A stretch of 64,000 nucleotides of DNA from a virus: positions 75 through 64,074 of the IMG/VR virus record IMGVR_UViG_3300028888_000141. One strand, given 5' to 3'. Shown one piece after another: positions 4,552-63,052 of the stretch. The notes below the pieces were generated by a model, which was not told the origin of the DNA, did not search any database, and saw only the letters and a list, made by a program, of their open reading frames with translations. The number at the start of each line of letters is the position of its first letter. The first letter of the stretch is position 1. Made by a program: the position numbers and the translations under genes.

Positions 4552-4578
4552 CATAAAAGGGTAAGATTTTTTTGCGAA
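4552..4578 (-). promoter_or_regulatory. Conserved 27-bp phage promoter motif upstream of the nuclease-RNAP operon
   Basis: Minus strand TTCGCA-AAAAAATCTTACCC-TTTTAT-G, same spacing as most other copies. Confidence 0.65.
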
Positions 4579-4599
4579 CATCAAAAATTTGTGAAAAAT

Positions 4600-4870
4600 A
4601 ACGTTCTGCCTGAAAACCTACTTTTATTCCTATATCTTTATATTTTTTATTTTTTTATTTTTATAGTTTTATAGAAAAAAAAACAGGTTTTTAGGCAGAA
4701 ATCGCTGAAACCCGCATGGATACTGGGCTGCAGCCCGCCTGTTTTTTCTGAAAAAGTAGGCGTACGCCTGTTTTTCTGACAAAAAGTAGGCAGAATTTTG
4801 CCAAAAATATCAAAAAACCTAAAACAAAAACAGGCAGAACCTATTTTTAGGCAGAAAAGTAGGCAGAGAT
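4600..4870. repeat. Putative replication origin: AGGCAGA iteron-like repeats next to an A/T-rich tract
   Basis: AGGCAGA at 4693, 4788, 4832, 4849 and 4861, inverted at 4605; tandem cgcctgtttt..ctga..aaaaagtaggc at 4736 and 4765; T/A runs at 4620-4683; non-coding. Confidence 0.55.
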
Positions 4871-4925
4871 TTTGTGATAAAAACATGACAAAATAACTAC
4901 CAAATGATAAACGAAATGGAAAAAA

Positions 4926-4955
4926 GAGAGGCTGATATTAAAATATCAACCCCTC
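4926..4955 (-). terminator. Intrinsic terminator of the (C/T)TGATA..TATCA hairpin family
   Basis: Hairpin followed by a T-tract on the minus strand, directly after the 125-aa ORF. Confidence 0.7.
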
Positions 4956-4968
4956 GATAACGATCAAT

Positions 4969-5346
4969 TTACCGTTTGAGTAAGCCCATCGACGACAAAA
5001 TTACTGTCGTAGATTCTCCGGCCTGACGTCGTTCTGCAAGTTCTACCTGCTGCTGATTGGTCATAGGACGCTTCAACATCACCCAAGAACCTGTTACCGG
5101 ATCGTATTTCTCAAGTTTCCTGCGTTTTTCCTCACGGTGATCATCAAGCTTTCGATCTACTCTGCCAACTAGTTTTGCTGCACCAGTCGCACAAGCGCCT
5201 AAAGCCGTGATACCTGCGATAGTTTCGCCAGGATGATCTGCACACCATCCAATAACATTCCTCACGGATGACTTAATGTCCTCAACCTTCTGCTTTGCCT
5301 TGCGTTTAGTATCTTCCATCTTGCCTTCAAATTGTTCTTTTGTCAT
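4969..5346 (-). CDS. Cassette-encoded single-TM hypothetical protein
   Basis: 125 aa with a hydrophobic segment; own promoter motif (5384-5412), AGGAGG SD and terminator. Confidence 0.75.
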   Translation of the reverse strand: MTKEQFEGKMEDTKRKAKQKVEDIKSSVRNVIGWCADHPGETIAGITALGACATGAAKLVGRVDRKLDDHREEKRRKLEKYDPVTGSWVMLKRPMTNQQQVELAERRQAGESTTVILSSMGLLKR

Positions 5347-5445
5347 TTTATATACCTCCTACAAATATAAATAACAACGTTACCATTAAAGACTATGAAA
5401 AGTTTTCACGAAAAGGAAAAGGGCATATTTCAGCCCTAAATTCCT

Positions 5446-5754
5446 TCATACATATTTAGTTAATTGATCTTTTCTTAGTTTTATCCAACCTCTTTCTAAT
5501 AACATATTCATTACAGATTTTCCTGTTACTGGTACTATCCAAAATATAAATCCGTTAACATCAACACGTTTAGCTAATCTTACTGAATTAGTACCTTTAA
5601 CCGCATAAAAATCTTTCATACACATTCCATCGATTAAATGCCAGTTATCAGTAACCATCCATTCTATTTTATCTAAACGATTGTCAAAGAATCTTTTTGA
5701 TACCAAATTAGAATCTGTAAAATATAAATCATATAGTTTGTATTGTAATTCCAT
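5446..5754 (-). CDS. Cassette-encoded hypothetical protein
   Basis: Promoter motif at 5767-5793, then GGAGGTGAT SD and ATG at 5754; AT-rich; hairpin terminator at 5414-5445. Confidence 0.7.
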   Translation of the reverse strand: MELQYKLYDLYFTDSNLVSKRFFDNRLDKIEWMVTDNWHLIDGMCMKDFYAVKGTNSVRLAKRVDVNGFIFWIVPVTGKSVMNMLLERGWIKLRKDQLTKYV

Positions 5755-5786
5755 AATTATCACCTCCATAAAAAGGCGTGAAATAA

Positions 5787-6965
5787 TTACGAAATATCTT
5801 TACAAAACGCACTTTCATTAAAGTTCTTTTTATTACTCAAAGCTCTGCTAATAGCTAAATCAATGCCTGAATGCGATTTAAAGTGATAATAATATAAATC
5901 TACAAATGGCGTATTAAGTCTATCAATTCTACCAGATGCTTGTTCCGTTTGCTTATAGCTGTAGCTTTGTGAGAAGAATATGATTGTGTCTGTGAGAACG
6001 CAGTTCCATCCTTCTGACCCAGAATTGTATTGCACCAAATACACCCATCTAGAATATCCAATAGGAATTTCTTGGTGTTTGTGTCCATTCCATTCTGCCA
6101 AGTGAAATATCCTTTGGTCGCTTGTGAATTCACTATTCTTAGTTTCAAAGAAGCCTTTAAGTAGATCAAGTTCGTAATCGTAGTTGTAGAATATAATGAT
6201 CTTGTTACGCCGTTCTGCAATTTCATATACTTTACTAAGTCGTGCAGGGTCCGAATTAACAACTCTCCTGAGCGTATAGCACATCGCTCCAGCATTTTGT
6301 AATGGCTCTTCTTTAAAGATGTCCCAGCGATCCTTAAGTATACGCTTATAATCCACAATCGAATACGGACAATAAATATCTTCATGATGTCTTACCGTCC
6401 TCCTTTCAAAATCCATCTGAACCAGTATCTTACGACGTAGCCCATTCAAATATCCAGTGTGTACATAGCCATCGATCTTAGGGAAGTCTGTGTAACGGTT
6501 CCATATAACATGTTTCTGACAGAATTCCGTACGATTTTTATAGAAACCATTAGCTATAAAGATAGGAATATAATCTTCCCAAGAATCTCCAGGCGTTGCA
6601 GACAATACAATCCATTTATTGTTTTTTGCTATTTTCAGAAATGCTTTTACCCACGCGCCTTTTCCAGTTATACGATCCTCATCAAATATAAAGAACGCAC
6701 CGGTTACTTCTGCATACTTTTTAATATTATTCCAACTATCAATCTTTTCTGCAGAAAAATGAAAAGGCAAAAGCTCTTCTTCCCACTCAAGCTCATCACG
6801 CTTTTTAGCAGTGGTAATAATATAAAGTGGGACATTCTTACCTATTTTTAGGTCGTAGTAAGCGAGTGAGGTCCGAGATTTCCCAGACCCCACACCGCCA
6901 GCAAGTATACAACCATTATGAATATTGGGTAAAGCCTTTTTCTGATGGTCGTATAACTCTACCAT
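5787..6965 (-). CDS. SF2 (SNF2-like) DNA helicase
   Basis: LYDHQ Q-motif, GVGSGKS, FIFDE, LSATP, GSEGWN and QASGRIDR. Confidence 0.9.
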   Translation of the reverse strand: MVELYDHQKKALPNIHNGCILAGGVGSGKSRTSLAYYDLKIGKNVPLYIITTAKKRDELEWEEELLPFHFSAEKIDSWNNIKKYAEVTGAFFIFDEDRITGKGAWVKAFLKIAKNNKWIVLSATPGDSWEDYIPIFIANGFYKNRTEFCQKHVIWNRYTDFPKIDGYVHTGYLNGLRRKILVQMDFERRTVRHHEDIYCPYSIVDYKRILKDRWDIFKEEPLQNAGAMCYTLRRVVNSDPARLSKVYEIAERRNKIIIFYNYDYELDLLKGFFETKNSEFTSDQRIFHLAEWNGHKHQEIPIGYSRWVYLVQYNSGSEGWNCVLTDTIIFFSQSYSYKQTEQASGRIDRLNTPFVDLYYYHFKSHSGIDLAISRALSNKKNFNESAFCKDIS

Positions 6966-6968
6966 ACT

Positions 6969-7193
6969 TTACTCCTTCTTAAAATTACAAAGCCATTCAT
7001 CCAGTTGTTTAGCACATTCCGGACAAAGATCGAAATTAAATTCATTTCTACCAAAACCTTTAAGATACGATGATGTCCCTCTAATAAAAAATTTTGTAAT
7101 TTTATGAATAAAGAAATAAGGTTCATCAAGATCATGCTTTTCACTCATTTCTTTGCCGCATCTGTCGCATGTAAAAATACGTCTTTCACTCAT
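6969..7193 (-). CDS. Small Zn-ribbon protein
   Basis: CDRC...LCPEC; translationally coupled operon. Confidence 0.65.
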   Translation of the reverse strand: MSERRIFTCDRCGKEMSEKHDLDEPYFFIHKITKFFIRGTSSYLKGFGRNEFNFDLCPECAKQLDEWLCNFKKE

Positions 7194-7416
7194 TTAAATC
7201 ACCTCTCTTTGCTCCAAATGTTATACGCTCGATACCATGGTTATCTTCAGGTTCTCTTTCACCCTTCAGAATATCAATCATCTTCTCGTAGCACTCGATC
7301 TGCTGCTTAAGATTATCAATACATGCTTCTTGATTAGCAATGATCTGCTCCTGAATATCAATCCTCTGCTCAAGATTATTAATCAATGCATTTATATCAC
7401 GTTCTGCCATTACCAT
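7186..7416 (-). CDS. Small coiled-coil protein
   Basis: Heptad-like L/I spacing; overlaps its neighbours. Confidence 0.6.
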   Translation of the reverse strand: MVMAERDINALINNLEQRIDIQEQIIANQEACIDNLKQQIECYEKMIDILKGEREPEDNHGIERITFGAKRGDLNE

Positions 7417-7657
7417 TCCTCCTCATTCCTTCTTCCACACCTTTTACATACGCTGCGTGCTCACGATCATAAATATCAATCATTTTCTGCTTCGTGAATT
7501 CGAGTTTAGATAAAACAAATTTAAAGCTATAATTCACAACCTTACAATCCTTCTTATCCAATTCGTTCACAATCTTAATATCCGATGCAGGAACCACATA
7601 AGGCCTGTCCGTCATAGGTCTACCGTCGTCCTCAAATACTCTTACTTCTGCGTACAT
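7397..7657 (-). CDS. Hypothetical protein
   Basis: 86 aa, AAGGAG SD. Confidence 0.6.
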   Translation of the reverse strand: MYAEVRVFEDDGRPMTDRPYVVPASDIKIVNELDKKDCKVVNYSFKFVLSKLEFTKQKMIDIYDREHAAYVKGVEEGMRRNGNGRT

Positions 7658-8211
7658 ATTGTCTCCTTATTTTCCAATTGCTCCAAATCAGAAGTACTCT
7701 TATCCTGCGGAATATAAACGCCTGCTGCATTCTTACGAAGGTTAAGAGGTTCCGGCTCATCATCGATGGAAAGTTTGTCGTTATCTTCGAAAGACGTGCA
7801 TCCTACCTTTTGATTGTGTATCGGAACGCTATAATATTTACAGCAACCAACTCCGGTATTAAGATCCATATGCTCAACATCGAAATACTTGCAATTACCG
7901 CATACTTTTCTTCTAATACCGGGAGTAAACATTGCTTCAAGTCTTTCCTCATCAAACTTAGCATGATCCTCGCGTTCCGCCTCAGTGAATGTCTCAATCA
8001 AATGTGTAAGATACCAAACAGCCTTCTTCAGATCCTGAACACCATTCTTCTTTTTCCATCTCAGAATGTACTTAATTGCATTAGCAGTGCAGACTGCTTC
8101 AGTACCCTGCAAGTCTTTACAGAACTCGTCAATAATATCAATAACCTCATACTTACCGCTTTTATAGTGGTCCGGGTGACTTACCATTTTATCGTTAGTT
8201 TCGTAGCTCAT
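7642..8211 (-). CDS. DUF3310-like protein with a C-terminal Cys cluster
   Basis: VSHPDHY..EVIDII..NAIKYILRW..KNGVQDLKKAVWYL; CGNC..CC..C. Confidence 0.75.
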   Translation of the reverse strand: MSYETNDKMVSHPDHYKSGKYEVIDIIDEFCKDLQGTEAVCTANAIKYILRWKKKNGVQDLKKAVWYLTHLIETFTEAEREDHAKFDEERLEAMFTPGIRRKVCGNCKYFDVEHMDLNTGVGCCKYYSVPIHNQKVGCTSFEDNDKLSIDDEPEPLNLRKNAAGVYIPQDKSTSDLEQLENKETICTQK

Positions 8212-9188
8212 TTTGTCTCCTCTCTTTCTGCCTTCTTACTTCTATCTTCGCCTTTCCTAAACCAGCGCTTAAATACATGATAGTAATCTCTTTCGTTACC
8301 GAATACCTTCTTACATACTGCCATAGCGAATCCCTTTTCTTTGTCATAAGGCTCGCCATCCTGAGTATGCACAACAGTTCTGGTTCCATCATTCCAGAGA
8401 ATAACAGTAGCAGGATCGTCGAAGATAACCTTGTCTATTTTTGAGGAAATAGTCATAGGAGCATCTTTATGAAGACCAGCACCATTATTAAATGCCCATG
8501 TTAGAGCAGCTTCCGTCTTAGCCGCTGTTTCTTCTTTAAAGGTGCTATCCATATCTCTATCATATCTAACAAATCTTCTGGCGTTACGAAGCATACGAGT
8601 GATTTTATCGCTATAAGGTAGCATAAATCTAGCATTAAGAGCCTGTCCAATATTATACAAAAATGTACACTCGAGATCTTGCCAAGTCTTATATCTTATG
8701 ACCCATATAGCCCTACCATTCTTATATACTGTTACAATATACGGATCAGCATAACCATATTTATTTCTTTCTATTTTAACTGATGCACCAATCTCGTCAA
8801 ATGTCATAAAATAGATATGATCTTCCACACTCCATTTCTCGTTTATTGATTGAATACATCTTATACTGGTATCGTCGGGTCTCTCCTTTTCAATTTTCTT
8901 TGAGGCATACCCATCAACCTTAACTTCAATCGTATCATCACGAGAAGTGGCGTTGGTTTCTATATGTGTAACAGTCATTACCTTGGTAAAAGTTCCGTCA
9001 TCATTTTTTAAATATAATTCTCCGCTTACAAAATTAGAGTTAAGAGTAGTTCCCATTTTCTGTTCCCCTTTCCATATACCTTCATACTTAGGATAAAAAT
9101 CAGATATATCCATATCACAATATTTGCTATAATAATCTTTGTAACCTAATCCAGGATCTTTAACGGTCCAAGCCCAACCGCCTTCCAT
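8208..9188 (-). CDS. Hypothetical protein with a conserved phage C-terminal domain
   Basis: 326 aa; IDKVIFDDPATVILWNDGTRTVV..YDKEKGFAMA resembles a domain common in phages. Confidence 0.65.
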   Translation of the reverse strand: MEGGWAWTVKDPGLGYKDYYSKYCDMDISDFYPKYEGIWKGEQKMGTTLNSNFVSGELYLKNDDGTFTKVMTVTHIETNATSRDDTIEVKVDGYASKKIEKERPDDTSIRCIQSINEKWSVEDHIYFMTFDEIGASVKIERNKYGYADPYIVTVYKNGRAIWVIRYKTWQDLECTFLYNIGQALNARFMLPYSDKITRMLRNARRFVRYDRDMDSTFKEETAAKTEAALTWAFNNGAGLHKDAPMTISSKIDKVIFDDPATVILWNDGTRTVVHTQDGEPYDKEKGFAMAVCKKVFGNERDYYHVFKRWFRKGEDRSKKAEREETK

Positions 9189-9193
9189 ATTAA

Positions 9194-9526
9194 TTACCTC
9201 TTCTTTTCTTTATTCATGACATCATTAAACTCCTTCATAGCATCTAATTCACCATTCATAGCGGTAACTAAATGTTTACGAATTCTTTTTATAGCTACCT
9301 CAAAACCAAATCTCTGATTTTCTCCTTTCTCGGTAAGCTTAGCGAACTCGAGTTTACGGGCATCATCGAGCTCCATCATATCCAAAAGATGCATAACATC
9401 ATCTAAAGTTCCAAATATCATTATGTGAGCAAACTGATCAAGAACCGTTTTCATTTCTTCAGGAACATTATCTGCTAACATATCAAACAACTGATCCTGA
9501 AGTTCATGTGCTGTGTTATTTTCCAT
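9194..9526 (-). CDS. Hypothetical protein
   Basis: 110 aa, in operon. Confidence 0.65.
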   Translation of the reverse strand: MENNTAHELQDQLFDMLADNVPEEMKTVLDQFAHIMIFGTLDDVMHLLDMMELDDARKLEFAKLTEKGENQRFGFEVAIKRIRKHLVTAMNGELDAMKEFNDVMNKEKKR

Positions 9527-9760
9527 CGTCTACCTCATAATTTAAAATATCATTCGCATTGTCAGTTATTATTGCTTCACATTCAGCTTGTCCTCCTCCA
9601 AGCTCTTTATAAATATGGTGAACTGGTTCGTCATTGCAAATATAAAAGAATCCATCGTGTTGATGAATCCTAATCATAGCAGATCTACATAAAGGACATA
9701 TTGGTGTATGGTATGTTATTACATATTGCATAATATCTCCTAAAAAGAAGAGAGAGGACA

Positions 9761-10099
9761 TTAAGTCCCCTCTACTTCTCGACTGTAGTACTTGGTCGGA
9801 ATTAATTCCCAACCCAATGATTCCATGTACTCATCACGATTATCGATTTGCACTTTGGCTGGTTTCATCAAACCTACGATATAGAATTCCTGCCACTGCA
9901 TAACATGAACTGGGCATCCGTCATTATCCTCTATCCACAAACCACTGACCTGTTCGATCGTTTCCGGATTTGTGGTTATATACCAACGTCTTTCCATATT
10001 CTTAATGCGAGAGTCACAATAATTCATTACGTATTTTGGTTTGATTTTAGCAAACCTTTCCTCATCGTAATCGAGAGTCAACATCTCTTCAAGTGTCAT
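9761..10099 (-). CDS. Cassette-encoded hypothetical protein
   Basis: Promoter motif at 10129-10155, AAGGAGG SD, terminator at about 9745-9775. Confidence 0.7.
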   Translation of the reverse strand: MTLEEMLTLDYDEERFAKIKPKYVMNYCDSRIKNMERRWYITTNPETIEQVSGLWIEDNDGCPVHVMQWQEFYIVGLMKPAKVQIDNRDEYMESLGWELIPTKYYSREVEGT

Positions 10100-10148
10100 A
10101 ATTGCCTCCTTTCAACTGGCACTACCGCCATCAAAGGAGATGAATTAT

Positions 10149-10370
10149 TTACGAGGTTTTGCGGTTAAAGCTAAGTAATATCTTGCTCAGCTTCTCATAA
10201 GATCCCTTAATAAGGCCGGAAGGTGTATCATCGATGAAAGATATCATACAAGTCTCAGGGTTTTCCTTATTTTCAACGATCATTCTTATAGAATTGGTGT
10301 TGATTACAGCCTGGATCTCTTTGGTTTTATCATCCTTACCAGTGGCTACGAAAGTTACGGACATAAACAT
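10149..10370 (-). CDS. Hypothetical protein
   Basis: 73 aa; its stop codon lies inside the promoter motif. Confidence 0.6.
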   Translation of the reverse strand: MFMSVTFVATGKDDKTKEIQAVINTNSIRMIVENKENPETCMISFIDDTPSGLIKGSYEKLSKILLSFNRKTS

Positions 10371-10372
10371 AT

Positions 10373-10576
10373 TTATTTTGCCTCCTTTTTTAACTTAGCA
10401 AGTTTTGTAGCAATGTCGACAAAGCAATCATTGCATACATGGTATGTATCACGGAAGTTTTCTATTTCTTCATGAGTAACATAAGTTTCATATAGTTTCT
10501 TGTGACATTCACAGCAGCAAACGTCCTTCTTGATTAACTGTACAGTCTTCTGATCCTTCTTTTCAAAAAATCCCAT
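10373..10576 (-). CDS. Small Cys-rich protein
   Basis: CCCEC...CNDC. Confidence 0.6.
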   Translation of the reverse strand: MGFFEKKDQKTVQLIKKDVCCCECHKKLYETYVTHEEIENFRDTYHVCNDCFVDIATKLAKLKKEAK

Positions 10577-10579
10577 AAT

Positions 10580-10759
10580 TTAGTCTCCTTTTAACATTTC
10601 TTCAGCGAATTCTTTCTTAATAAGTTCCTGCACCAATTTGGTGACATTTAGATCTTTTTTCTTCATAAGATAATGAAGTCTTATTTCATCTCGTTCGTCG
10701 AGGCGTATTGTGTGTTGTGTATAAAGTTTTCTTGGTTCTATTTTCTTTTTTAAAGGCAT
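10580..10759 (-). CDS. Ribbon-helix-helix-like DNA-binding protein
   Basis: TIRLDERDEIRL..MKKKDLNVTKLVQELI pattern; start moved to MPLKKK after GGGAG. Confidence 0.55.
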   Translation of the reverse strand: MPLKKKIEPRKLYTQHTIRLDERDEIRLHYLMKKKDLNVTKLVQELIKKEFAEEMLKGD

Positions 10760-10760
10760 A

Positions 10761-11261
10761 TCATTTGAACTCCCTTTTGCTGAAATAATGTCCGCCATAC
10801 TGAAACAGTGGAATCGGACCATTATAACCATCAGCACAAAAATATAAAGCCCCTTCTGATTCATCCCAACCATACATAATCCACGTTAGAGCAATTCTGC
10901 ATTCGTCGTCCGGAGGTACCGAGCTTCTTAGTGCAAATTGTCCAGGTTTGATAATATCACAAAGGGCTTCTCCATAATGACCAGATATCCATCGATTAAT
11001 GGCCACACGCATAACTAGAGCCTTTCCTTTTATTCCTTCTCCTCTAGCTTCTGCCATGGCCATATTCATCAACTGTTCAATATCATGGTCTGAGAATATA
11101 AATACCGGTTGTACATAATCAGGATCACGGATTATTACTCCACGATCTGTATATACAACCGGCTCATCAATCCATTTGAAACCGCAAAGGACGTTAATCG
11201 AGAAAATCGTCAAGATCAAGATCGTCAGAATCCTCATCATCTTCGTCGTCTTCTTCTTCAC
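10761..11261 (-). CDS. SleB/CwlJ-like cell wall hydrolase (Hydrolase_2) with signal peptide
   Basis: AEARGE..KALVMRVAINR, PGQF, GALYF and GGHYF; N-terminal basic then hydrophobic segment. Confidence 0.8.
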   Translation of the reverse strand: MKKKTTKMMRILTILILTIFSINVLCGFKWIDEPVVYTDRGVIIRDPDYVQPVFIFSDHDIEQLMNMAMAEARGEGIKGKALVMRVAINRWISGHYGEALCDIIKPGQFALRSSVPPDDECRIALTWIMYGWDESEGALYFCADGYNGPIPLFQYGGHYFSKREFK

Positions 11262-11511
11262 TTGTATTCTCCTTGTTATCCGGCTTTAGAATATCAAGAC
11301 ATTCTTTAAGGCACTTATTTATGTCAGGAAGAACATCAAGAAAACAACGAAGACCAAAAGCTTCAAGCTTTTTAAGAGTTTTAGCAGTCTTGCTTTTTCT
11401 GTGCATTATTACTGCATTAGCGATGACTCTCTGAATGCCGATAACGATAAGAACCAGAACAAGAATATCAAGAAGTACCCAAAGCATTTCGTGTGCATAA
11501 ACAACCATCAT
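11194..11511 (-). CDS. Membrane protein with an acidic tail
   Basis: N-terminal TM segment; tail EEEDDEDDEDSDDLDLDDFLD; AAGGAG SD. Confidence 0.65.
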   Translation of the reverse strand: MMVVYAHEMLWVLLDILVLVLIVIGIQRVIANAVIMHRKSKTAKTLKKLEAFGLRCFLDVLPDINKCLKECLDILKPDNKENTSEEEDDEDDEDSDDLDLDDFLD

Positions 11512-11585
11512 AATTTTGTCTCCTTTTCTTTTTAAATATAAAAGGGGCCAGCATGAAGCCAGCCCCAATGGGTTTAGAATATCAA

Positions 11586-12134
11586 TTACTCGGCGTCATC
11601 AAACTCGTAATCGCTTACGAATCTGCTGCGGGCAAGAGTGAAATATCCTTCATTACACCAAGCCTTAACCATATCACGGTTCTTGGTAGAGTTCCAGTAA
11701 GGCTTACCGTTGTTAATTACGATATCTGCCTTGTTGATATCGGCAAGATCGATCTCGCATATGGAATCCTCATTCATGAGCAGCTTAGCTCTGTCAGTAA
11801 CCATGTAAAGCTTAGGCTTAACAGCAGAATTATAAGATACGGCTACCTGGAGTCTGTACTCGGGTGAATCACCTTCCTCACGAGGAGGTCTTACAGTTAC
11901 GTTGTAGCCGATCTCAGCAAGTTCCAGACCAAAGTCAGGATTAGTGACCTTTTCACCGTTCCACCAAATATCACTCTTCTCGGGATCAAGAATGACAGTG
12001 AAGTTACGATTACCCTGGTCATTTACAACCCTCTTTGATCCGTTAACGATAGCAGTCTTCTCCTGACCACTGAAGTTCTTGTAGCGAATCTGTGCGTTTG
12101 CGATTTCAAGAATGTTACGTCCGTTAAGTGCCAT
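11586..12134 (-). CDS. Putative single-stranded DNA-binding protein
   Basis: Next to the polymerase; IRYKNFSG..N..GNRNF pattern, acidic/aromatic tail DYEFDDAE; start at MALNGR after AAGGAG; terminator at 11520-11575. Confidence 0.65.
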   Translation of the reverse strand: MALNGRNILEIANAQIRYKNFSGQEKTAIVNGSKRVVNDQGNRNFTVILDPEKSDIWWNGEKVTNPDFGLELAEIGYNVTVRPPREEGDSPEYRLQVAVSYNSAVKPKLYMVTDRAKLLMNEDSICEIDLADINKADIVINNGKPYWNSTKNRDMVKAWCNEGYFTLARSRFVSDYEFDDAE

Positions 12135-12150
12135 AGTTTTGTTCTCCTTT

Positions 12151-15100
12151 TTATTTAAATGGTAACTCAAGAGGGACCTCCTTATTGGTAAGTCCCTCAT
12201 AGGTATAAGGTTTTGAGAGATCCAAGAATGCCTGACAATCACCATACACAATGATTGCATTCATAGCTTCATGAACCATGTTCTCATAGTAAGAAATATC
12301 AATATCATCTTCCTTACCAAGTGTTCTAACCATCTCTGACTCAAGCCAGTGATAGCCTTTTGTTCCTGCTAAAGCATAGTACTTGTCATTGTCAATGCGA
12401 TAAAGAATGCCCCCATTTTTTACGGGACAGAACTGGCCAACTCTTCCGACGAAATGCAAGTCCGTTCCGTCTTCATAGTCAATATAAATCGCGCCTTTAG
12501 ATACAGCTTTTGTTTCACATAAGTCATCGAAAGTAATTTCTTCGTGGGAAAAGAGTGTTTTAAACACATAAGGCTGCTGGAACTGAGCGCCAGTTGCCTT
12601 CCATCCCTCTTCCGTATGACCAATAAATACTGCGTCATTAACAAGGCATATACGATCCCATTCATCTTCCAACTCAAACGAATATCCATAGCATTCTCCA
12701 AATCTCATTACGAATTTCTCTATAAATTCATCTGGATTAGCTATCTTAATCGAGTCGGTCTTGATGTGAATGACCTTATAACCAAGTGACTCCACGGCAA
12801 GCTGAAGATCAATCATTGTCAAAGCACCACGCTTAGCGACAATATTGTCAATATTACGAGGATCTCTGAAAGGATTCTCGAACTTTGCACTTGTCAATCC
12901 ATATACTGAATTGATTGCTGTCTTCAGTGCGTTTGCCAAGTTCTTTGCCTGCTTAGGATCGGTTAAATATTTTGCAAGTTTTCCACCAAACAACTTACTT
13001 GCTTTGTCGAAGTCTTTGTGCTTGATGTGGACTCTCGTCTGGACAAGTTCTCTGAACGTATCTGTATACTCTTCACCGAATAGCTCCTCGGCTAATATAC
13101 TATGTGGATGCATACTTGCCACATCGAATGTCTTAGCATGACCATATGTGCCGGGGTTTGCATAGACTCTACCACCTTCACCGACTTCATACCCACGATA
13201 GGTGCTTACACCATTTTCGAAAGAATATCCATCGAACCATACCTGGCCCTCAGGTTTCTTATCGGTTTTTCCTGTGGCGTAGTCCATGACATCGGACCAA
13301 GTGAATGCTGGTCCTTCAGGTTTTTCACCAAGGAATCGATAGTTGAACTGGGACTGGGGCTTACGTTCATGTCCAAATATCAATCGAGTTGTAAGTGTAT
13401 TAGTAGTGTCATTTACTGTTCCACCGGCAAGATCTGCTAAGATCTCTCTTGCTAAGAAGTCTTCCTGTGTAGCATCCCATACTGCTTCTGTAGACATGAC
13501 GTCGTTATCACAATACTCTGATACCTCGATCCATTTTTCTTCAGGAACAGGCTGATCCCAAGGAAGTCCAAGCTCCATATGCTTAATACCAAGCTTGATC
13601 TCCCATTTCTTAAGGGACATCTTATTCGCTGCTGACATGTAATCATAAATATCAGTGTAGCTGACATTGTATGCGTCTTTAAGGAACGCATCCTTATCTC
13701 CTGCTACAATTCTCTGTGACAAACGATACAACTGCTCTTCCGAATATCCCATCATTCGAGCATAAAGCATGTGGTTGTCATATCGCCTACAGTTGAAGCC
13801 TATGAGCTTGTGATGCATAAGCTGTTCGACTTCTGATGGAGCTGGATTAATCATTCTTATGATTGGCTCACCTTTACCTTGTCGCTTCCAATTTATTAGG
13901 AAGAGATTAGGAAAGACTTCACAGTCAAAGAATATCAATGTGTCATCCAAAGGTTCTGGAGCCGGTTCATCCAGCATATCGTCGTCCAAGACTTCTTTTG
14001 ATTTAAATTTCATTTTTCCGACAACCTTGACACATTCGTCTGCATGATGTGTGCTATTTGCTGCGAAACCTAATATAGCCGTTCGCATATCTGACACATC
14101 GTATCTGACTCCTGACTCATAGGCGTCTTCCAATATTTTGTAGATGAAGTCTATACTAGGCTTAGTCGCCGGATGAATATCTTTCACCAGGTTCTTTTTG
14201 ATCAACGTTCGTATAGACTTTTCGTTAGCTAAGCCTGTAAAGTTAGTCACATCTTTGTCTCCTTTCAGTGGCAAACCCGAGCTTATTTTAGCTATAGGAA
14301 GATTGTTACATTTACTTAACTGTCTTCTCAGACTGCTATTTCCGTTAAACACTTTTATTTCGATATGTTCTTCATAAATACTTGCTAACTTTGTAGGATC
14401 ACCAGTATAAATATAATGCAGATGTATGCCTTGACCAGATTTAGACAACTCTGCATATGTGGGTGGCCATTTAGCAGCCGCTTCGAGATTCAGAGCAAGA
14501 GACTTGTTACCATTCTTGTCCGGAATATCAAAGTCTATAACTATATGATCTGTCGGGACTTTTACATAATGCAATTTGGAAGTCTTTAACTCACCAAGTA
14601 AGGTTGTATTATTCTGCCATTTTTTGCTAGGAATTCCTTCAGCTGTCGCATACTGAGCAGGGTAATCCTTTGCTATTAGATCAAACACAGAATCATACTC
14701 ACCAAATCGAAGCCAAGATTCATCGTCTTTTTTTGTTTTCACTTGTGGTTTGTCGAAATTGAATTTGAAACCAGTGTAGCAATTGTATGGGCGTTCTCCG
14801 TTATCCAGTTGCAAACGTTCATGGAACTCCTCAAAGTAGTTCTTGAGTTCGTTCTTAAATACACGCATGCTCATAGGATAATTAACACGAGCCTCTTCAC
14901 AATATTCCTTGTAAAGAGTCCATGCCTGTTTGAGAGTCACATACTCCTGCTTTGCGAAAATATCAGCTGAATCTTCGATGTAGTTGTAGAAATCGTTAGA
15001 TTCGCCCATCATATTAATAGGAACATACCCTTCATAATAATCTGGATCTGCTAAATATACTTCGCGACAATGATTCGCGATTCCACCAAGCTCAAACTGT

Positions 15101-16056: not shown

Positions 16057-16071
16057 TAATACACCTCCGGT

Positions 16072-16626
16072 TTATAAATATCCATCCATTTCTCCGAGAT
16101 ACCAATTTGCTTGCATCCATATCTCTACATTTCTTAGATCATCGAATGGCCGTTCTAAAACAAATAGACCGCCTTCTGATCCGTCAGGTTCATACTCACG
16201 GTCAAGAAAACGGTCAACGCACCATTCTGCTGTTGAAATATCAAAGTTATTATCGTCGAGTCGACTTAATCCTAGATTAGTAATCATTGTCCAGAACCAT
16301 TGACCTGTTCGATCACCAGAATCATAATCGGTCATGATCTGGTTCTCTAATCGTAACGACAATGCTATAAGCATTTCTAGTACTGAGCATGGCTCTTGTA
16401 AAATATCATTACTGCAACCATACTTGTACCTTAGATCAATGCCGTCTAAAGCACGATTACGATCCATAGGAATGTACTCGGACCAATAGAAATCCCTAGA
16501 ATATAAATACTCAAATAATCGACGATAACCTATTTCATTGTATCGATCTTCATAAACCAAGTTACAGATGGATTTAAAATATTTAGTGGATCTGGACAAG
16601 TTCATCGTCATCACCAAACCTTTCAT
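16072..16626 (-). CDS. Conserved phage hypothetical protein
   Basis: DRNRALDGIDLR, PCSVLEMLIALS, GGLF, EIWMQANWYL; true start probably downstream of the listed one. Confidence 0.65.
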   Translation of the reverse strand: MKGLVMTMNLSRSTKYFKSICNLVYEDRYNEIGYRRLFEYLYSRDFYWSEYIPMDRNRALDGIDLRYKYGCSNDILQEPCSVLEMLIALSLRLENQIMTDYDSGDRTGQWFWTMITNLGLSRLDDNNFDISTAEWCVDRFLDREYEPDGSEGGLFVLERPFDDLRNVEIWMQANWYLGEMDGYL

Positions 16627-17173
16627 CGATCACGGTGATGTCATAAATTGCCTCTCTCTCTTCATTCAGAATATAAATACTTTCTCCATCTGACTTTCTT
16701 ATGTCATCGATACCGTTCATACCGATCCAATCAGCGTAGTCCTCGATGATGTTTTCAGTTTCGTCATCAATAAGGACGTCGTCAGAATATAAAGTAAGAC
16801 CTACAATTTCGTAGTCCTTACTATAATGCTGTGCTTCGGATTCGGTTATGATCTTAATGGGAACATTTCCGGCCTTAGCTGCCTGCTTCTTGGGTTTGCT
16901 TATTGAATTGTAATCGGTAGGACCAACAGGGGTTTCTTCATCCTGCTTAACCTTCTCTTCAAGCTCATGCATCATTTCCTGCTTTTTTGCATTCATTTCA
17001 TCAAGAGCTTTTCTTGAAGCTTCGATCTTTTCGACGCGCTCGTCATACATGGTTCTGAGCTCATCGATCTGGTCATTCATTTTCTGCTCATACTGCTTCT
17101 TCGCTACCATGTAGGAAGACACTGCTCCTACAGCAATGCCTCCTACGAATGCGAGAATATCAATAGCCTTCAT
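16583..17173 (-). CDS. N-terminally anchored coiled-coil protein
   Basis: 196 aa; TM segment then coiled coil; AAGGAG SD. Confidence 0.7.
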   Translation of the reverse strand: MKAIDILAFVGGIAVGAVSSYMVAKKQYEQKMNDQIDELRTMYDERVEKIEASRKALDEMNAKKQEMMHELEEKVKQDEETPVGPTDYNSISKPKKQAAKAGNVPIKIITESEAQHYSKDYEIVGLTLYSDDVLIDDETENIIEDYADWIGMNGIDDIRKSDGESIYILNEEREAIYDITVIDERFGDDDELVQIH

Positions 17174-17183
17174 ATTCGTCTCC

Positions 17184-18125: not shown

Positions 18126-18136
18126 TGTTTCTCCTT

Positions 18137-18799: not shown

Positions 18800-18822
18800 A
18801 ATACTCCTTTCAAAGAAAAATT

Positions 18823-18853
18823 TGAGAGACTGATAATAAATATCAATCTCTCA
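18823..18853 (-). terminator. Intrinsic terminator of the GACTGATA..TATCAATC family
   Basis: tgagagactgataataaatatcaatctctca; G-U pair only on the minus strand. Confidence 0.7.
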
Positions 18854-18870
18854 TGGAGGCAGCTCAACGA

Positions 18871-19191: not shown

Positions 19192-19260
19192 GTTAATTTC
19201 CTCCTATTTGTTGTGAGCTGTTTTGCCTACCATTAAATGATATGAAATTTTTGCGAACTT

Positions 19261-21243: not shown

Positions 21244-21325
21244 ACTATCACCTCCTTCATAATAGGAAGCGAAATTTTTGCGAAAAACTAAAGGAGACTG
21301 ATAAATATCAATCTCCTCTATTTTG

Positions 21326-21730: not shown

Positions 21731-21762
21731 TGAGCGTAACCGCTCCCATTATAGGATATGAA

Positions 21763-56121: not shown

Positions 56122-56988
56122 TTAAATTTTTACCTTCATCCAATCAGACCAATCACTTGCGGTGAAGTACTCACTGTCTCCTTCGGCATATGCCCCTTGA
56201 ACTACATAGGCTCCTTTGGGAATATCCGAGACCTTGGTACCCTTAAGATCTTCCATAACCGACTTATAGTTCTTGACATCTCTTGCTTTTTTTGCAGCAG
56301 CTGAGATTTCTTCATCAGATGCTGTATCTATGTCTATATTGAGGTTGGTGTGGTGCTCTTGTTTTTTGTCATCTTCTTTTAACCTTAAAGAATCTCTTAT
56401 ATAATTCTTTAAAGCCTCTGAGAAAGCAGCAGGTACATCTTTAGCAAGACTGTTTTTAAGATTTGTTGTGAACTGTTTTCCGATAGTTACTTTTTCTGGA
56501 TGTAGCTTAGAATACTTCTCTTTAAAATCTATTTCTTGCTGCATTCTAGCGTTAAGATCCCTGAGTTCCTGATCACTCATCTTAGAAATATCTTTCTTAG
56601 ACTTATCAGAATCAGTTTTTCTATTCGCTTCTTCTTTCTGCTTCTTCTCAGCTTCTTTACGTTCTTTCTCTTTTCTCTCTGTTTCGTTCTTAGGATCTTC
56701 AACAGAAGTTTCGGTATCAAGTCTACGCCCTTTATGATCATAGACCTTTCCATCAGCAGTTTTGAACGTAGTATTTTTATTAATCTTTTTGTTACTTCCG
56801 GTTCGGAGATTATAGCTTCTAACCATACCTTTCATTTGGTCTTTGGTTAAAATATCCCCATATCTTTTTCGACCTTCTTCAGTAAGTGATCCATCTGGAT
56901 TCTGGAATCTACGAACACCCCATTTCATTCCAAGAATTCCGTGATGCTCAAGATAATCGTAAGATCTAACTACTACATAATCACTCAT
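56122..56988 (-). CDS. HHG-tag protein with charged helical cargo
   Basis: YLEHHGILGMKWGVRRFQNPDGSLTEEGRKRYG. Confidence 0.8.
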   Translation of the reverse strand: MSDYVVVRSYDYLEHHGILGMKWGVRRFQNPDGSLTEEGRKRYGDILTKDQMKGMVRSYNLRTGSNKKINKNTTFKTADGKVYDHKGRRLDTETSVEDPKNETERKEKERKEAEKKQKEEANRKTDSDKSKKDISKMSDQELRDLNARMQQEIDFKEKYSKLHPEKVTIGKQFTTNLKNSLAKDVPAAFSEALKNYIRDSLRLKEDDKKQEHHTNLNIDIDTASDEEISAAAKKARDVKNYKSVMEDLKGTKVSDIPKGAYVVQGAYAEGDSEYFTASDWSDWMKVKI

Positions 56989-57000: not shown

Positions 57001-57630
57001 TTATCTTGTCTGTCTAGCAATCTCTTCGAGAGCAGCATATGTCTGTGGATTAGCCATAACATTATTTCCAGTCATCATACTATTTGCATACGCATTACCA
57101 AAACTAGCGGCAGTTGACTGTCCATATGTAGCAAATGTATTAAGTGCCTGTTGGCCTTCAGGACTGGATATGTATCTCATGAGATTATTAAAATCACCAT
57201 TAGACGCCAAAGTTGTAGCTTTATCGACAGTATTAAATGCAGTCATCATTGTGTTCTGCGTCTTGGGGTCTGTAAGCATTTTTCCTAACTGAAGATAGTC
57301 ATTGGTTTTCTCAAGCTGCATTGCTGTATTAACAACCTGACCAAGCATAACCGATGTCATGGTCTTAGCTAAGTAAATAGATCCAGCAATCTTAGCTACA
57401 TCATAAGTATAAGCAGCAACTTTTTTAGCGCCTTCCCAAATTTTTCGTCTGGTTTCGGCATTCTTAATCTTTTTGGCTTCTATTTCTTCTGGGGTTAGCT
57501 CTTTTTTAGTTCTTCTACTTCCACCATTGTATCTAGCGGCTGTATCACTATTCCAGACTCCCCACTTCATTCCTAAAATACCATGATGCTCCAAATAATC
57601 CGGAGACCTTTGTACATAATAAACACTCAT
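57001..57630 (-). CDS. HHG-tag protein
   Basis: YLEHHGILGMKWGVW; start moved to MSVYYV after AGGAG. Confidence 0.75.
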   Translation of the reverse strand: MSVYYVQRSPDYLEHHGILGMKWGVWNSDTAARYNGGSRRTKKELTPEEIEAKKIKNAETRRKIWEGAKKVAAYTYDVAKIAGSIYLAKTMTSVMLGQVVNTAMQLEKTNDYLQLGKMLTDPKTQNTMMTAFNTVDKATTLASNGDFNNLMRYISSPEGQQALNTFATYGQSTAASFGNAYANSMMTGNNVMANPQTYAALEEIARQTR

Positions 57631-57648
57631 ATTGGATCTCCTCATAAA

Positions 57649-59731: not shown

Positions 59732-59737
59732 AATTCA

Positions 59738-60046: not shown

Positions 60047-60080
60047 CTGCCTTTGGCTATGGTGGGATGATTACTTATTT
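60042..60080. repeat. 39-bp exact direct repeat, copy B
   Basis: Spans the stop of 60075-60881 and the ATG of 59738-60046. Confidence 0.9.
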
Positions 60081-60881
60081 GTGATTTCTATCCCATTCTT
60101 CTTTTGCTTTACTCCATTCTTCATCTTCGAATCCTTCGTAAGTTTTTCTAAAATCATGAAAAGCTGTAAGATCTCCACCTTGACTTTCCATACTTTTTAA
60201 CATTTCTGGTTCATTCTTTTTAAACCAATCATATGTTCTATCGTATGCTCTACTAGAAGCTTTATAACGTTCTTCGGAATCATAGAAGTCCTCGGAATCA
60301 TAGAAGTCCATAGCATTCTTTCTATCTTCTTTACTAGTTATTCTGGTCGATTCGGGGAGCTCTCCAGGTTTCTTATCAGATCTCTGTTTATCGATTGACC
60401 TATCGATCATCTCGACTCTCAAATCCCTGAATCCGTTAAGGAATTCTCTTCCGGCGTTTATGACTTTGCCACTAACAACACTACCAGCAAGAGCAGCTAC
60501 AGGAAGCAAAGGGTTAACACTTAAAACACCAGCAGCCATTAATCCAGCTAGAGTTCCTGCTCCGACAATGCCAGTTGCTCCTGTAGCAACAGATGTTGCA
60601 GCGTTGCGGTATTTTGTCTTTGTCATCCTATTTACTTTATTGGCTGAAACGAGAGCTTTCTTCTCGGAATAAGACAAATTAGGGTCCTGAATATTCTTCT
60701 TCAGTTGGCGAACGGTATAGTTTCGACCATAATGCTTCCTACCAGCCTCAGTAAGTGATCCATCAGGGTTCTGATATCGTCTGATGCCCCATTTCATTCC
60801 GAGAATGCCATGATGAGCTAGGTAATCTTCTTTGTCGTAAACTTCATCTGGTTTTGGATTTCTCAACACATAATAATCCAT
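60075..60881 (-). CDS. HHG-tag protein with a hydrophobic hairpin cargo
   Basis: YLAHHGILGMKWGIRRYQNPDGSLTEAGRKHYG; Ala/Gly/Val-rich stretch. Confidence 0.8.
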   Translation of the reverse strand: MDYYVLRNPKPDEVYDKEDYLAHHGILGMKWGIRRYQNPDGSLTEAGRKHYGRNYTVRQLKKNIQDPNLSYSEKKALVSANKVNRMTKTKYRNAATSVATGATGIVGAGTLAGLMAAGVLSVNPLLPVAALAGSVVSGKVINAGREFLNGFRDLRVEMIDRSIDKQRSDKKPGELPESTRITSKEDRKNAMDFYDSEDFYDSEERYKASSRAYDRTYDWFKKNEPEMLKSMESQGGDLTAFHDFRKTYEGFEDEEWSKAKEEWDRNHK

Positions 60882-60899
60882 TTTGATTTCCTTTCTGGA

Positions 60900-62645
60900 T
60901 TACTCGAAAGCATCCTGATTGTTCTTGTAAGCTATAAACGCATCCATCGAAGCCGCTACGGGGTCAATCTTTGCCTCATAACGTTTCTTCAACAGTTTGC
61001 GGTTACCATTGGTATCCTCCATGACAATACAGTTACCCATTGCAAACTGCATTATGCCTTCGTTGAATACCCATAGCTTATCGGCAGCCAATTTCTTTAT
61101 CTCGCCCAAAGGAACTGACTCAGTTTTAGAACCCTGAATGACTTTCTCTATGCCAAATGGACCATTCTCAGATGCCCAACGCTCAACAAACTCTTTTGCA
61201 TTGTAAGGGTCATAGCCAAAGCATCGAATGTCATACTCCATTCTTGTTATAAAGTCATCAAGTTCATCGTATACTTGCATCAGATCAAGAATTACTCCAT
61301 CCATAATTACCAATGATCCTTCATTGATGAATTCCTGGTACTTATTTCTCATTGATGGAGGTAACTGATCAAGAGTTCTACTTGAAATGTAGTTTCGAGT
61401 CTTAATACCGAATGCTCCACCAGGAAGCGGGAACAAAAAGCTGAATGCACAGAAGTCATCTCCTTGTGAAAGGTCTGCTCCCATAGCACAAGCCATGCCC
61501 TTAAGACTATATAATCTCTGAGGTTTTGTCTCCTCAAATGTAAAGAAGTAAGTTAAGCCTTCCATCGGTATACCGAATCGTTTAGCGAGAATATCATTCC
61601 TTGTGGATGGAACGTTTTCGGCTCTATCTACTTCTATTCTATAGGTTTCATAGCTTACGGTCTTTCCGAGATTAGGGTTGGCTTTAAGCCACATCTCTTC
61701 CATTCCAACTTCACTTACATCATCGAGCTTATACCACCAAATACTTACATGTGGATTCTCATACTCGCCTCGTAAGATCTTTGTTAATTCTATTTTGATG
61801 TCATCGCCAGGACCATTTCGCACAGTACCTTCGGATGACACCGATAGAATTAACCAATCATCGTTCTTTGCACAGCTCTGTTCCAGTGGAGTCATTACAT
61901 CTTCTCGGATGTCTCCAGAAAGCCACTCATCAATTGTTGCAATCTTACACCTAGAACCCTGAAGCTTATCGATGTCCATAGGGACTATCTCTAAGATAGA
62001 GTTTGTAAGGAAGTCTTCAATTCCTTTCTTCGTAGACGCGAGTTTACAACGATTTGCTTTACTTCCTGTAGTATTCTGTAATGATCCTTCTGTTAAGAAC
62101 TTAAACAAAGGTCCTTTCGATCTCGTGATTGCTGTTTTTAGTGAAGACATAACCTCTTCGGCCTGTCTCATTGTTGGTGCTGTAGTTACTTGCTTTGTCG
62201 TACTTGTGTCAACGGTAAGGAAGTAACTCTGAACACACGATTCATACAATGTTTTAGCAGCACCTCTTCCGATGATTAGGTACTGCTTGTTGATAAGCCT
62301 GGTTTTTACTTCGCGGTATTCGAAATGGCCACCGCCTTCTTCCCAATCATTAGGAACAAACACTGACTTATTCTTGAAGTAATACCAGCCAAAGATTTCC
62401 TCGCCCCATAACTTGAATGTATCAAGCATATGGAGATCCGAACCGTCAGTTAATGTTAACTCTTTCTCGCTAAAAGCAATCCATCCTTCTACTATAGTGT
62501 CATCATAGTAAATATCTGGATCTCTTATTAGTTCATCGATGCGGTTCATCTCCATGGAGACTTCACGGTTGACTGGTATCTCTCCGCGTAATACCGCATC
62601 ACGGAACTGACCGTAATAATACGGTGTCGCGGTGTTTGATAGCAT
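60900..62645 (-). CDS. terL: Terminase large subunit
   Basis: IGRGAAKT Walker A, TIDEW Walker B, W.KANPNLG, GADLS..DF, GYDPYNA, KIDPVAA. Confidence 0.9.
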   Translation of the reverse strand: MLSNTATPYYYGQFRDAVLRGEIPVNREVSMEMNRIDELIRDPDIYYDDTIVEGWIAFSEKELTLTDGSDLHMLDTFKLWGEEIFGWYYFKNKSVFVPNDWEEGGGHFEYREVKTRLINKQYLIIGRGAAKTLYESCVQSYFLTVDTSTTKQVTTAPTMRQAEEVMSSLKTAITRSKGPLFKFLTEGSLQNTTGSKANRCKLASTKKGIEDFLTNSILEIVPMDIDKLQGSRCKIATIDEWLSGDIREDVMTPLEQSCAKNDDWLILSVSSEGTVRNGPGDDIKIELTKILRGEYENPHVSIWWYKLDDVSEVGMEEMWLKANPNLGKTVSYETYRIEVDRAENVPSTRNDILAKRFGIPMEGLTYFFTFEETKPQRLYSLKGMACAMGADLSQGDDFCAFSFLFPLPGGAFGIKTRNYISSRTLDQLPPSMRNKYQEFINEGSLVIMDGVILDLMQVYDELDDFITRMEYDIRCFGYDPYNAKEFVERWASENGPFGIEKVIQGSKTESVPLGEIKKLAADKLWVFNEGIMQFAMGNCIVMEDTNGNRKLLKKRYEAKIDPVAASMDAFIAYKNNQDAFE

Positions 62646-62654
62646 GTGTACCTC

Positions 62655-62987
62655 CTATTCTTCTGAAGCCGCTCCAGAATATAACTTCATAGCGGCAATA
62701 GCTTCGGCATACATACTGTCTGTCTTAATCTGTGAGTCGAGGGCTTCTACTTTCTTCTGTAGAAGTTTGTTCTCATTACGTAATTTCTCCAGCTCTAACT
62801 GCTTTTCCATAGAACCAAGCTTTAAAAAGTGACAAGTCTCCTGTGACGTTGCGGTTCCATTAAGTAATCTCTGCTCTACTAAGTTGTATGAAAGATTAAT
62901 TAACTGTTTTTCTCGCTCGTCGGGATCGACTGCCCTTTTAATTCTCTTAACTTCTACTGGAGCTCCCTCTTCTTTCTTTCTTCCCAA
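62655..62987 (-). CDS. Putative terminase small subunit
   Basis: 110 aa directly upstream of terL; helical/coiled coil. Confidence 0.55.
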   Translation of the reverse strand: MGRKKEEGAPVEVKRIKRAVDPDEREKQLINLSYNLVEQRLLNGTATSQETCHFLKLGSMEKQLELEKLRNENKLLQKKVEALDSQIKTDSMYAEAIAAMKLYSGAASEE

Positions 62988-63025
62988 GACAATCGACCTC
63001 CTTTCCTTATAGTTAAAAAATATCG

Positions 63026-63052
63026 ATTGTAAAAAAATGTTATCCTATTATG
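63026..63052 (+). promoter_or_regulatory. 27-bp promoter motif copy on the plus strand
   Basis: ATTGTA-AAAAAATGTTATCC-TATTAT-G followed by the hairpin gagga-ataa-tcctc. Confidence 0.6.

Follow-up and report, generated by a model that had tools for sequence, protein, structure and literature searches.

How RNA polymerases (RNAPs) of the single-chain two-barrel type, such as YonO, QDE-1 and the relatives of crAss-like gp66, find their start sites without a sigma factor is a largely open question in the accessible literature, where mapped promoter motifs appear for phage P23-45 only. For YonO, to our knowledge, no promoter consensus has been reported. P23-45 has two kinds of promoter motif, one AT-rich and one GC-rich, which were located by cappable-seq and chromatin immunoprecipitation (10.1101/2022.12.01.518664). 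The crAss-like phage phi14:2 packs its gp66, of which 2,166 residues were modelled, into the virion; this enzyme transcribes the early genes and was assayed on denatured DNA (10.1101/2020.03.07.982082). Closest to the present case, Koert et al. (bioRxiv, 10.1101/842583) described computationally, in a supercluster of phages that includes 1706, FP_oengus and actinophages, a probable polymerase (PHROG 4291) that carries helix-turn-helix (HTH) modules at its two termini; the main text of that preprint never uses the word “promoter”. Here we analyze a stretch of 64,000 nt, referred to below as the window, from IMG/VR record IMGVR_UViG_3300028888_000141. It is the 64,074-bp genome of a sheep-gut phage less 74 nt, the best DNA match being a sheep-gut metagenome run. 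The window encodes a predicted 989-aa single-chain two-barrel RNAP (637–3606, minus strand) and carries 19 copies of a motif of about 30 nt. We propose that the phage has a private transcription system, in which these copies are probably the promoters and its own 989-aa polymerase the reader. Whereas the polymerase family itself has already been described, the pairing of the enzyme with a conserved 30-nt signal is new. The literature searched, with supplements and the original papers on phages 1706 and ReqiPepy6 outside its range, contained no description of this promoter.

A first-pass annotation of the window had listed 19 copies of a 27-bp promoter, and all of them are present where it placed them. 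The minus (coding) strand carries 18; the remaining copy is on the plus strand, ahead of a gene of that strand. The pattern TTCGYA-N14-TWTWATG is matched exactly at eight places, every one of them on the minus strand; 100 dinucleotide shuffles contain no such match. When both strands were scanned with a 30-nt weight matrix built from the 19 sites, these scored 20.2–38.1 bits and every other position scored 8 bits or less; in 50 shuffles the mean best score was 11.2 bits and the maximum 20.2. This matrix is circular, because it was seeded with the same 19 sites. A family matrix was therefore also used, with 65 seed sites that include 47 of five other phages. Above its cut-off of 14 bits the window contains the same 19 sites and no others, so that scanning adds no copy to those first listed. 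The 27-bp core holds, although the conserved signal is longer, about 30 nt, and reads TTCGCAAAAATTT(C/G)AT-TCC-TWTWAT-G-R-A-G, that is T-T-C-G-C/T-A, an A-run, TTT, C/G, A, T, T-C-C, T-W-T-W-A-T, G, R, A, G. Beyond the two hexamers, conservation extends over positions 7–15 (AAAATTT C/G A), positions 19–20 (CC) and the purines past the terminal G.

Every one of the 19 copies is co-oriented with the transcription unit downstream of it. Thirteen are packed into about 5 kb, between one-gene cassettes. The array opens on the minus strand at 26227–26253 (37.8 bits), right behind the structural and lysis module, and the copies that follow in the direction of transcription lie at 25973–25999 (37.8 bits), 25732–25758, 25545–25571 (31.0 bits, with the terminal G replaced by A), 25217–25243 (38.1 bits), 24989–25015 (27.4 bits), 24627–24653 (30.4 bits), 24250–24276 (27.7 bits), 24005–24031, 23702–23728, 22943–22969 (31.4 bits), 21747–21773 (28.6 bits), 21258–21284 and 19231–19257, the last of these before the 106-aa gene at 18871–19191. 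Farther along the same strand are the copies at 10129–10155 (34.2 bits) and at 5767–5793, where a GGAGG starts on the terminal G itself. The weakest copy, at 5384–5410, does no better than the best shuffle (20.2 bits); its upstream box is shifted by 2 nt, which agrees with the N16 spacer noted on first reading, and a Shine-Dalgarno sequence (SD) is present, with the ATG 38 nt past the G. The minus-strand copy at 4552–4578 (37.3 bits) precedes the endonuclease-exonuclease-RNAP operon, so that one copy does sit upstream of the polymerase's own operon, as had been claimed, and an orthologous copy is kept in relatives. The sole plus-strand copy (63026–63052, 30.1 bits) precedes an open reading frame (ORF) of 83 aa at 63087–63338; a PHROG scan of this ORF and of six cassette ORFs returned no match. 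The statement that all copies lie upstream of genes needs one correction: in 18 of the 19 an SD and a start codon are found 13–91 nt past the terminal G, while the copy at 25732 is followed by 223 nt free of ORFs.

The same motif, in the same register and on the coding strand only, is found in all eight annotated relatives that were examined, whose hosts are Lactococcus, Faecalibacterium, Arthrobacter, Streptomyces, Gordonia, Rhodococcus and Bifidobacterium, one being an unassigned gut phage. In Lactococcus phage 1706 the motif is present at least 11 times, as TTCGCATGTTTTACATAYACTATAGTAGAAAG, in the genome region that corresponds, and in FP_oengus 14 times, as gaCGCGAAAAAt-CA-CCTTTATGGAAG. 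There are 10 copies in Arthrobacter phage Gordon, 13 in Streptomyces phage Rima, 10 in Gordonia phage Kenosha and 14 in ReqiPoco6, the copies in these four reading cTCGCA-ATTACAC-CCTATAATGAGA, and 4 in BitterVaud1 and 2 in MT835495; the other strand has no match in any of the eight. C3-G4-C5-R6, C14-A15, T23, T26 and G/A27 followed by a purine recur throughout, and by manual count the consensus sequences of 1706 and Rima, whose hosts are Lactococcus and Streptomyces, agree at about 22 of 30 positions. MT835495 is the closest annotated relative, but with only the polymerase block in common and no more than two copies of its own it is of little use for footprinting. Three control phages that infect the same host genera and lack this polymerase, FP_Lagaffe, sk1 and phiC31, gave no match, the best score being 6.3 bits. 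The annotated early promoters of sk1 are of the sigma-A form TTGACA-17-TATAAT, unlike those of 1706 in the same host species.

These comparisons bear on the idea that an alternative host sigma factor, or a phage-encoded one that has escaped recognition, reads the motif in place of the 989-aa enzyme. Some alternative sigma factors do use bipartite signals with a short spacer, and many small ORFs between 4 and 27 kb have no family match. Yet the relatives share none of these small ORFs and have in common only replication genes, nucleases, DUF6353 proteins, a few unknown proteins and the polymerase. The motif stays nearly identical even though the hosts span two phyla, and the three control phages from the same host genera lack it. 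Among the other conserved proteins no match to a sigma factor or regulator was found, and the polymerase is the sole conserved non-structural protein with DNA-binding domains. We consider a separate sigma factor a very improbable reader.

The first-pass annotation had proposed that co-occurrence of motif and polymerase be checked among related phages, and this check, carried out in IMG/VR from both sides, was strongly positive. A search with the single protein found one 4.4-kb relative, and an alignment-based search found at least 446 stretches. Starting from the polymerase, 76 of 80 loci that encode it (1.21 Mb) contain at least one motif match; the polymerase strand has 181 matches, against 2 for the opposite strand and 5 for shuffled sequence. 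The four loci without a match, together with a fifth whose sole match is downstream of the polymerase start, include less than 900 nt upstream of the gene. Upstream sequence of at least 924 nt is available for 75 loci; in 74 of them a copy is located 924–1408 nt before the polymerase gene, and its counterpart in the window is the copy at 4552. Starting from the motif, 114 stretches were picked by the pattern alone; 89 of them have at least 1600 nt downstream, and 88 of these 89 encode the polymerase 865–1350 nt downstream on the same strand. Since motif and polymerase go together even where the host bacteria differ widely, the motif is most likely the promoter of that enzyme. The window-type pattern also gave two single matches in IMG/VR, one of them in a complete 98-kb phage without the polymerase; both fall below 14 bits on the family matrix and were set aside as chance.

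The 989-aa protein matches phrog_4291 from residue 19 to residue 988 with E = 0 and is 35–45% identical to members of that family. Its GADFDGD centre is invariant in alignments of 8 and of 20 sequences. Pfam detected HTH modules only, Sigma70_r4_2 and HTH_29 at residues 97–125 and HTH_23 and HTH_38 at residues 947–988. The ORF therefore resembles the family described by Koert et al. (10.1101/842583) in its end-to-end match, its DxDGD loop and its HTH modules at both ends, to which a predicted double-psi beta-barrel fold may be added. An AlphaFold model based on 20 sequences has a mean predicted local distance difference test score of 75. With this model as query, Foldseek placed QDE-1 first (E = 1.4e-8, probability 1.0), followed by plant RDR2 and the P23-45-type gp64 RNAP, and the protein is accordingly predicted to fold like the QDE-1-type two-barrel polymerases. 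A profile search of Protein Data Bank sequences with the polymerase matched only the HTH parts. Full-length relatives were found by tblastn in 250 phage records; Arthrobacter, Gordonia, Streptomyces and Lactococcus account for most of these.

Covariation was examined between 60 polymerases of less than 90% identity and the positions of their promoters. In this exploratory comparison, 7 of the 25 top-five protein columns for promoter positions 1, 2, 6, 7 and 8 fall within the HTH module at residues 97–125, which is the highest count for any 29-aa window (mean 0.74). After correction for entropy, the alignment thus gives a hint, and only a hint, that residues 97–125 covary with the upstream part of the signal. 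Residues 238–256 had appeared as partners of promoter positions 16–22 by raw mutual information; this association disappeared once column entropy was corrected for and was an artefact.

The N-terminus of the polymerase, LYLEHYG...GRYPWGSG, which is disordered in the model, resembles the beginning of four head-region proteins encoded on the minus strand (63384–63938, 60075–60881, 57001–57645 and 56122–56988). These start with (D)YL(A/E)HHG(I/V)LG(M/Q)KWG, a possible capsid tag, and three of the four continue with RR(Y/F)QNxDGSLT. The same stretch is DYLAHYGIL in the polymerases of Kenosha and ReqiPoco6, and MT835495 has three more proteins with a tag of the head-region type. In GenBank orf75, the orthologue in phage 1706, is labelled “structural protein”, as it is in the ReqiPoco6 record. 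The HYG...WG stretch may be a capsid-targeting tag. The shared N-terminal stretch and the GenBank label suggest that the enzyme may be delivered in the virion. We put the chances at about even that the capsid contains the polymerase and that it is injected, in which case the motif copies would be early promoters.

The first-pass annotation had also argued that the motif does not fit sigma-A, and this argument both holds and extends to the family. The A/T-rich, TATAAT-like hexamer close to the start is reminiscent of sigma-A (sigma-70 type) promoters, from which the motif differs in three ways. First, 14 bp separate the upstream box from the hexamer in 18 of the 19 copies, whereas the sigma-A −35 element is spaced by 17±1. 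Second, position 22, which would be the near-invariant −11 A, is variable; 10 of the window copies have A there, 8 have T and one has C, all 14 copies in FP_oengus have T, and the 257 distinct sites that make up the family set divide into 128 with A, 112 with T, 11 with G and 6 with C. The T at position 26, the counterpart of the near-invariant −7 T, is present in all 19 window copies. Third, the SD often crowds the hexamer. Its core begins 0–3 nt past the G at 5767, 21258, 23702 and 24005 (3 nt in the latter three) and lies within 5 nt of the G in 45 of the 220 family sites that have a recognizable SD and ORF. A start 7 nt past position 26 would remove such an SD, so that a fifth of the sites would seem to require a start no more than about 3 nt beyond the hexamer. 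In the two regions scanned, sigma-70-like consensus sites are found at chance frequency (42 against 42.2 expected in 18–30 kb and 21 against 19.6 in 1–6 kb). Co-occurrence and this misfit together lend indirect support to the interpretation of the motif as a phage-RNAP promoter.

Where transcription starts within the signal is suggested by several pointers. In the family set, position 27 is G in 229 and position 28 is a purine in 255 of the 257 sites. In FP_oengus (2908–3006) a motif copy is followed, 1 nt past its G and hence at position 28, by a tRNA-like gene detected by ARAGORN, a single and imperfect case with an odd anticodon loop; tRNA genes abut motif copies at only 2 of 87 loci. As far as sequence can tell, the close SDs and the tRNA-like gene argue for a start at positions 27–29; the informative ends of RNA contigs, at positions 35–36, fit either this or a start of the sigma-A kind. 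In ReqiPoco6 (12668–12776) a motif copy is followed by a tRNA-Ala gene that starts 7 nt past the G.

Almost all genes of the window are carried by the minus strand. A first block, from about 63 kb to 27.1 kb, contains the terminase, the head and tail genes and the lysin. It is followed by densely packed small genes (26.2–21 kb), then by the replication genes, including a 1301-aa primase-polymerase, and finally by an endonuclease, a Cas4-like exonuclease and the 989-aa ORF. Terminator-like hairpins exceed expectation in 18–30 kb (13 observed, 5.4 expected), and the T-run of several of these finishes directly before a motif copy. In Streptomyces phage Rima (11650–19292), eleven terminators with the tail GGGGTTTGGGTTT stand ahead of many promoter copies, and the promoter there is followed by a conserved leader, GAGACCCCTACGAAAGGA, that is common to the Gordonia and Rhodococcus phages.

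RNA evidence was available as contigs, which mark transcript ends only approximately, from two metatranscriptome runs on one sheep-gut sample, in which DNA carry-over is possible. The gene at 18871–19191 is covered by an RNA contig at 18893–19222 (depth 37.7) in one run and at 18858–19223 in the other, and the latter runs into Illumina adapter at 19223, 8 nt past the G of the 19231 copy. RNA contigs thus bound this 106-aa gene between the 19231 copy and the gene's terminator. Another contig, 22671–22934, ends 9 nt past the G of the 22943 copy. The offset of 8–9 nt could stem from loss of ends during library preparation or assembly, and the contig ends would fit a promoter equally well with a start at the G, followed by end loss, or with one a few nt farther on. 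Most of the region from 17.5 to 27.5 kb has thin contig cover or none, and no site is listed as the start of many molecules. The 106-aa gene (minus strand) has by far the deepest RNA contigs in this region, 37.7 and 13.9 against mostly less than 6 elsewhere.

The clustering of copies in the cassette region raises the question whether the repeats are cassette boundaries, acting as recombination substrates, or operators for a regulator, with promoter activity incidental. Thirteen copies in about 5 kb between one-gene cassettes would suit such a role, as would a DNA contig, from the probable source sample, that skips part of the region and would be compatible with cassette turnover. In this contig 19906 is joined to 25490 with 20 other letters between; its flank of just 20 nt makes it weak evidence. 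Several further contigs depart from the reference at cassette borders. Co-occurring variants that differ in cassette content could lie behind the join, though the evidence is slight. The strict orientation of the copies with the gene downstream, the single plus-strand copy included, speaks for promoters instead, as do their abutment on SDs and a tRNA-like gene, the 5′ boundary of an abundant RNA contig right past one copy, and the retention of the orthologous copy at the RNAP operon where cassettes are absent. We give the boundary or operator explanation very little credence.

A number of observations weigh against a promoter read by the 989-aa polymerase. The A/T block of the actinophage relatives reads exactly TATAAT or TATAGT, as it does in all listed copies of Rima and Kenosha, and such a sequence also suits the −10 element of actinobacterial sigma-A. 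The two informative RNA contig ends, 8–9 nt past the G, are nearer a sigma-70-type start and inside the sigma-70 range as counted from position 26. Both observations would be expected if host RNAP with sigma-A used TWTWAT as its −10 element while a phage factor bound to the CGCR box replaced −35 recognition, as MotA and AsiA do at the middle promoters of T4; the HTH modules of the 989-aa polymerase could themselves play this part. The distance of about 14 bp between the upstream box and the −10-like element also recalls the geometry of the T4 MotA box. Against such an appropriation of sigma-A stands the T at position 22 in 8 of 19 window copies, in every FP_oengus copy and in 112 of the 257 family sites. 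A start 7 nt past position 26 would moreover cut the SD at the 45 of 220 sites noted above, and the FP_oengus tRNA-like gene begins at position 28. About 15 window proteins besides the polymerase, a selection of the ORFs scanned with no MotA or AsiA models by name, showed no sigma, anti-sigma or activator family. Finally, nearly the whole 30 nt is kept across phages of Firmicutes and Actinobacteria, beyond what a −10 element and one box would need. We therefore regard the appropriation of sigma-A as unlikely, although it deserves more weight than the explanations by an alternative sigma or by cassette boundaries.

Other contrary points concern the association with the polymerase itself and the reach of the motif. 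Contigs at 23437–23780, 24302–24667 and 24950–25201 run through motif copies, in libraries that may contain DNA. The copy found in the motif-first search is one syntenic copy, so that co-occurrence partly reflects shared ancestry, and L157, a 13.8-kb IMG/VR provirus fragment and the sole exception among the 89 stretches, has an operon-type copy but no polymerase in the 4.6 kb downstream or elsewhere. The covariation with residues 97–125 tracks clades; D116, for example, always goes with A7 inside one large clade. The matrix scan found no motif copy in the 36-kb structural module (62987 down to about 27141), so that the motif does not account for late transcription. Neither biochemistry nor genetics in the literature searched shows the motif being read by the polymerase. 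For gp66, structurally the nearest characterised virion enzyme, the study reports no common motif upstream of the early transcripts (10.1101/2020.03.07.982082). With these points taken into account, we still judge the 989-aa polymerase to be the probable reader of the 19 copies.

If so, the signal would be organized as an upstream box, TTCGCA, with an A-run at positions 1–10, a middle element TTT(C/G)A, then CC and TWTWAT at positions 19–26, and a G followed by a purine. The polymerase would bind this signal as duplex through its built-in HTH modules and open the A/T-rich block, and the first nucleotide of the transcript would be the terminal G (position 27) or the next purine (R28). The promoters would serve short units, each holding from one to a few genes and ending at an intrinsic terminator, that span the non-structural half from 26.2 kb down to 4.5 kb, with the extra copy driving one plus-strand gene at 63 kb. 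The last copy would drive the polymerase's own operon through a structured, terminator-like leader, and we infer that this arrangement might allow feed-forward control. As a guess, read-through from the polymerase operon could enter the structural module after the genome ends are joined.

A fuller scheme can be drawn from these elements, which we offer tentatively and do not expect to hold in every part. It is that of a sigma-free, host-independent module in which a polymerase brought into the capsid by its N-terminal HYG...WG tag would be injected along with the DNA; the HTH at residues 97–125 would recognize the CGCR box, some 24 bp before the start, and TWTWAT would be melted for initiation at the G. 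The same grammar would apply in the at least 446 IMG/VR stretches and in 250 phages of Firmicutes and Actinobacteria, and the operon copy, with its attenuator-like leader, would feed a promoter-less structural module once genomes are joined.

The leader of the RNAP operon (4455–4552, minus strand) forms, from the terminal G, a closed three-way structure that is followed by UUUUCUUUUU, with a folding energy of −24.4 kcal/mol (z = −3.3). In relatives, a hairpin and a T-run are found at this position, sometimes before a tRNA-Met gene, and the leader looks like an attenuator. Upstream of the operon promoter is a gap of about 350 nt that contains four copies of TCTGCCTA (five of CTGCCT) at 4690–4870 on the minus strand, paired CAGAAAAAACAGGCG elements and a long A/T stretch. 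The TCTGCCTA repeats are iteron-like, and the gap could be an origin or an operator region. At the other end of the genome, before the first head-region gene (63939–64000, minus strand), a half-motif, CACTTTATGGAGG, scores below 8 bits; it resembles the downstream part of the promoter without the upstream box. A look by eye for a late promoter, limited to 62.6–64 kb, did not find one for the structural module.

Some further features of the window may be recorded. Megablast of positions 1–20000 against phages gave a sole match, of 118 nt, within the polymerase gene. Three paralogous DUF6353 (phrog_2152) proteins are encoded on the minus strand in the replication region (17184–18125, 19261–20037 and 20194–21021) and are kept in relatives. 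Over the whole window the coding strand has 58 occurrences of the octamer WTGATATT and the opposite strand two, where chance would give an estimated 6 or so per strand; 36 occurrences are in one reading frame (xWT GAT ATT), 11 are in another and 11 are wholly or partly intergenic, and several terminator loops include it. A like polarity is seen in FP_oengus, with 29 against 0 in 50 kb.

Set beside known phage systems, the pairing described here has a recognizable place. One parallel is P23-45, whose virion RNAP gp96 and non-virion RNAP gp64 are likewise single-chain two-barrel enzymes with private motifs that are missing from relatives without the enzyme; it differs in that the present promoters are known from comparison alone, the present enzyme has fused HTH modules and the motifs are unrelated (10.1101/2022.12.01.518664). 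The fold of gp66 from phi14:2 is also a QDE-1-like two-barrel one, but the present phage has a strong motif of the duplex type, and packaging of its enzyme in the virion is only plausible (10.1101/2020.03.07.982082). YonO of the Bacillus prophage SPbeta, compared here by description only, is another single-chain DNA-dependent RNAP, distant from the multisubunit RNAPs and working without sigma (PMC5467207), whereas HTH fusions are a feature of the present family. The continuous, phage-specific signal running up to a G start, in many copies of which one precedes the polymerase gene region, recalls the promoters of T7-type single-subunit RNAPs; those enzymes are of the right-hand and not the two-barrel kind, and the present motif is longer, with a separate upstream box. 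What the comparison brings out is a compact 989-aa enzyme together with a sharply defined 30-bp signal, kept from Lactococcus to Streptomyces phages, a pairing that would account for the dense arrays of one-gene cassettes in a large phage supercluster. It offers a concrete promoter for work in vitro and, in the sigma-region-4-like HTH, a candidate recognition module, and if confirmed it could provide a small orthogonal expression system for Gram-positive hosts.

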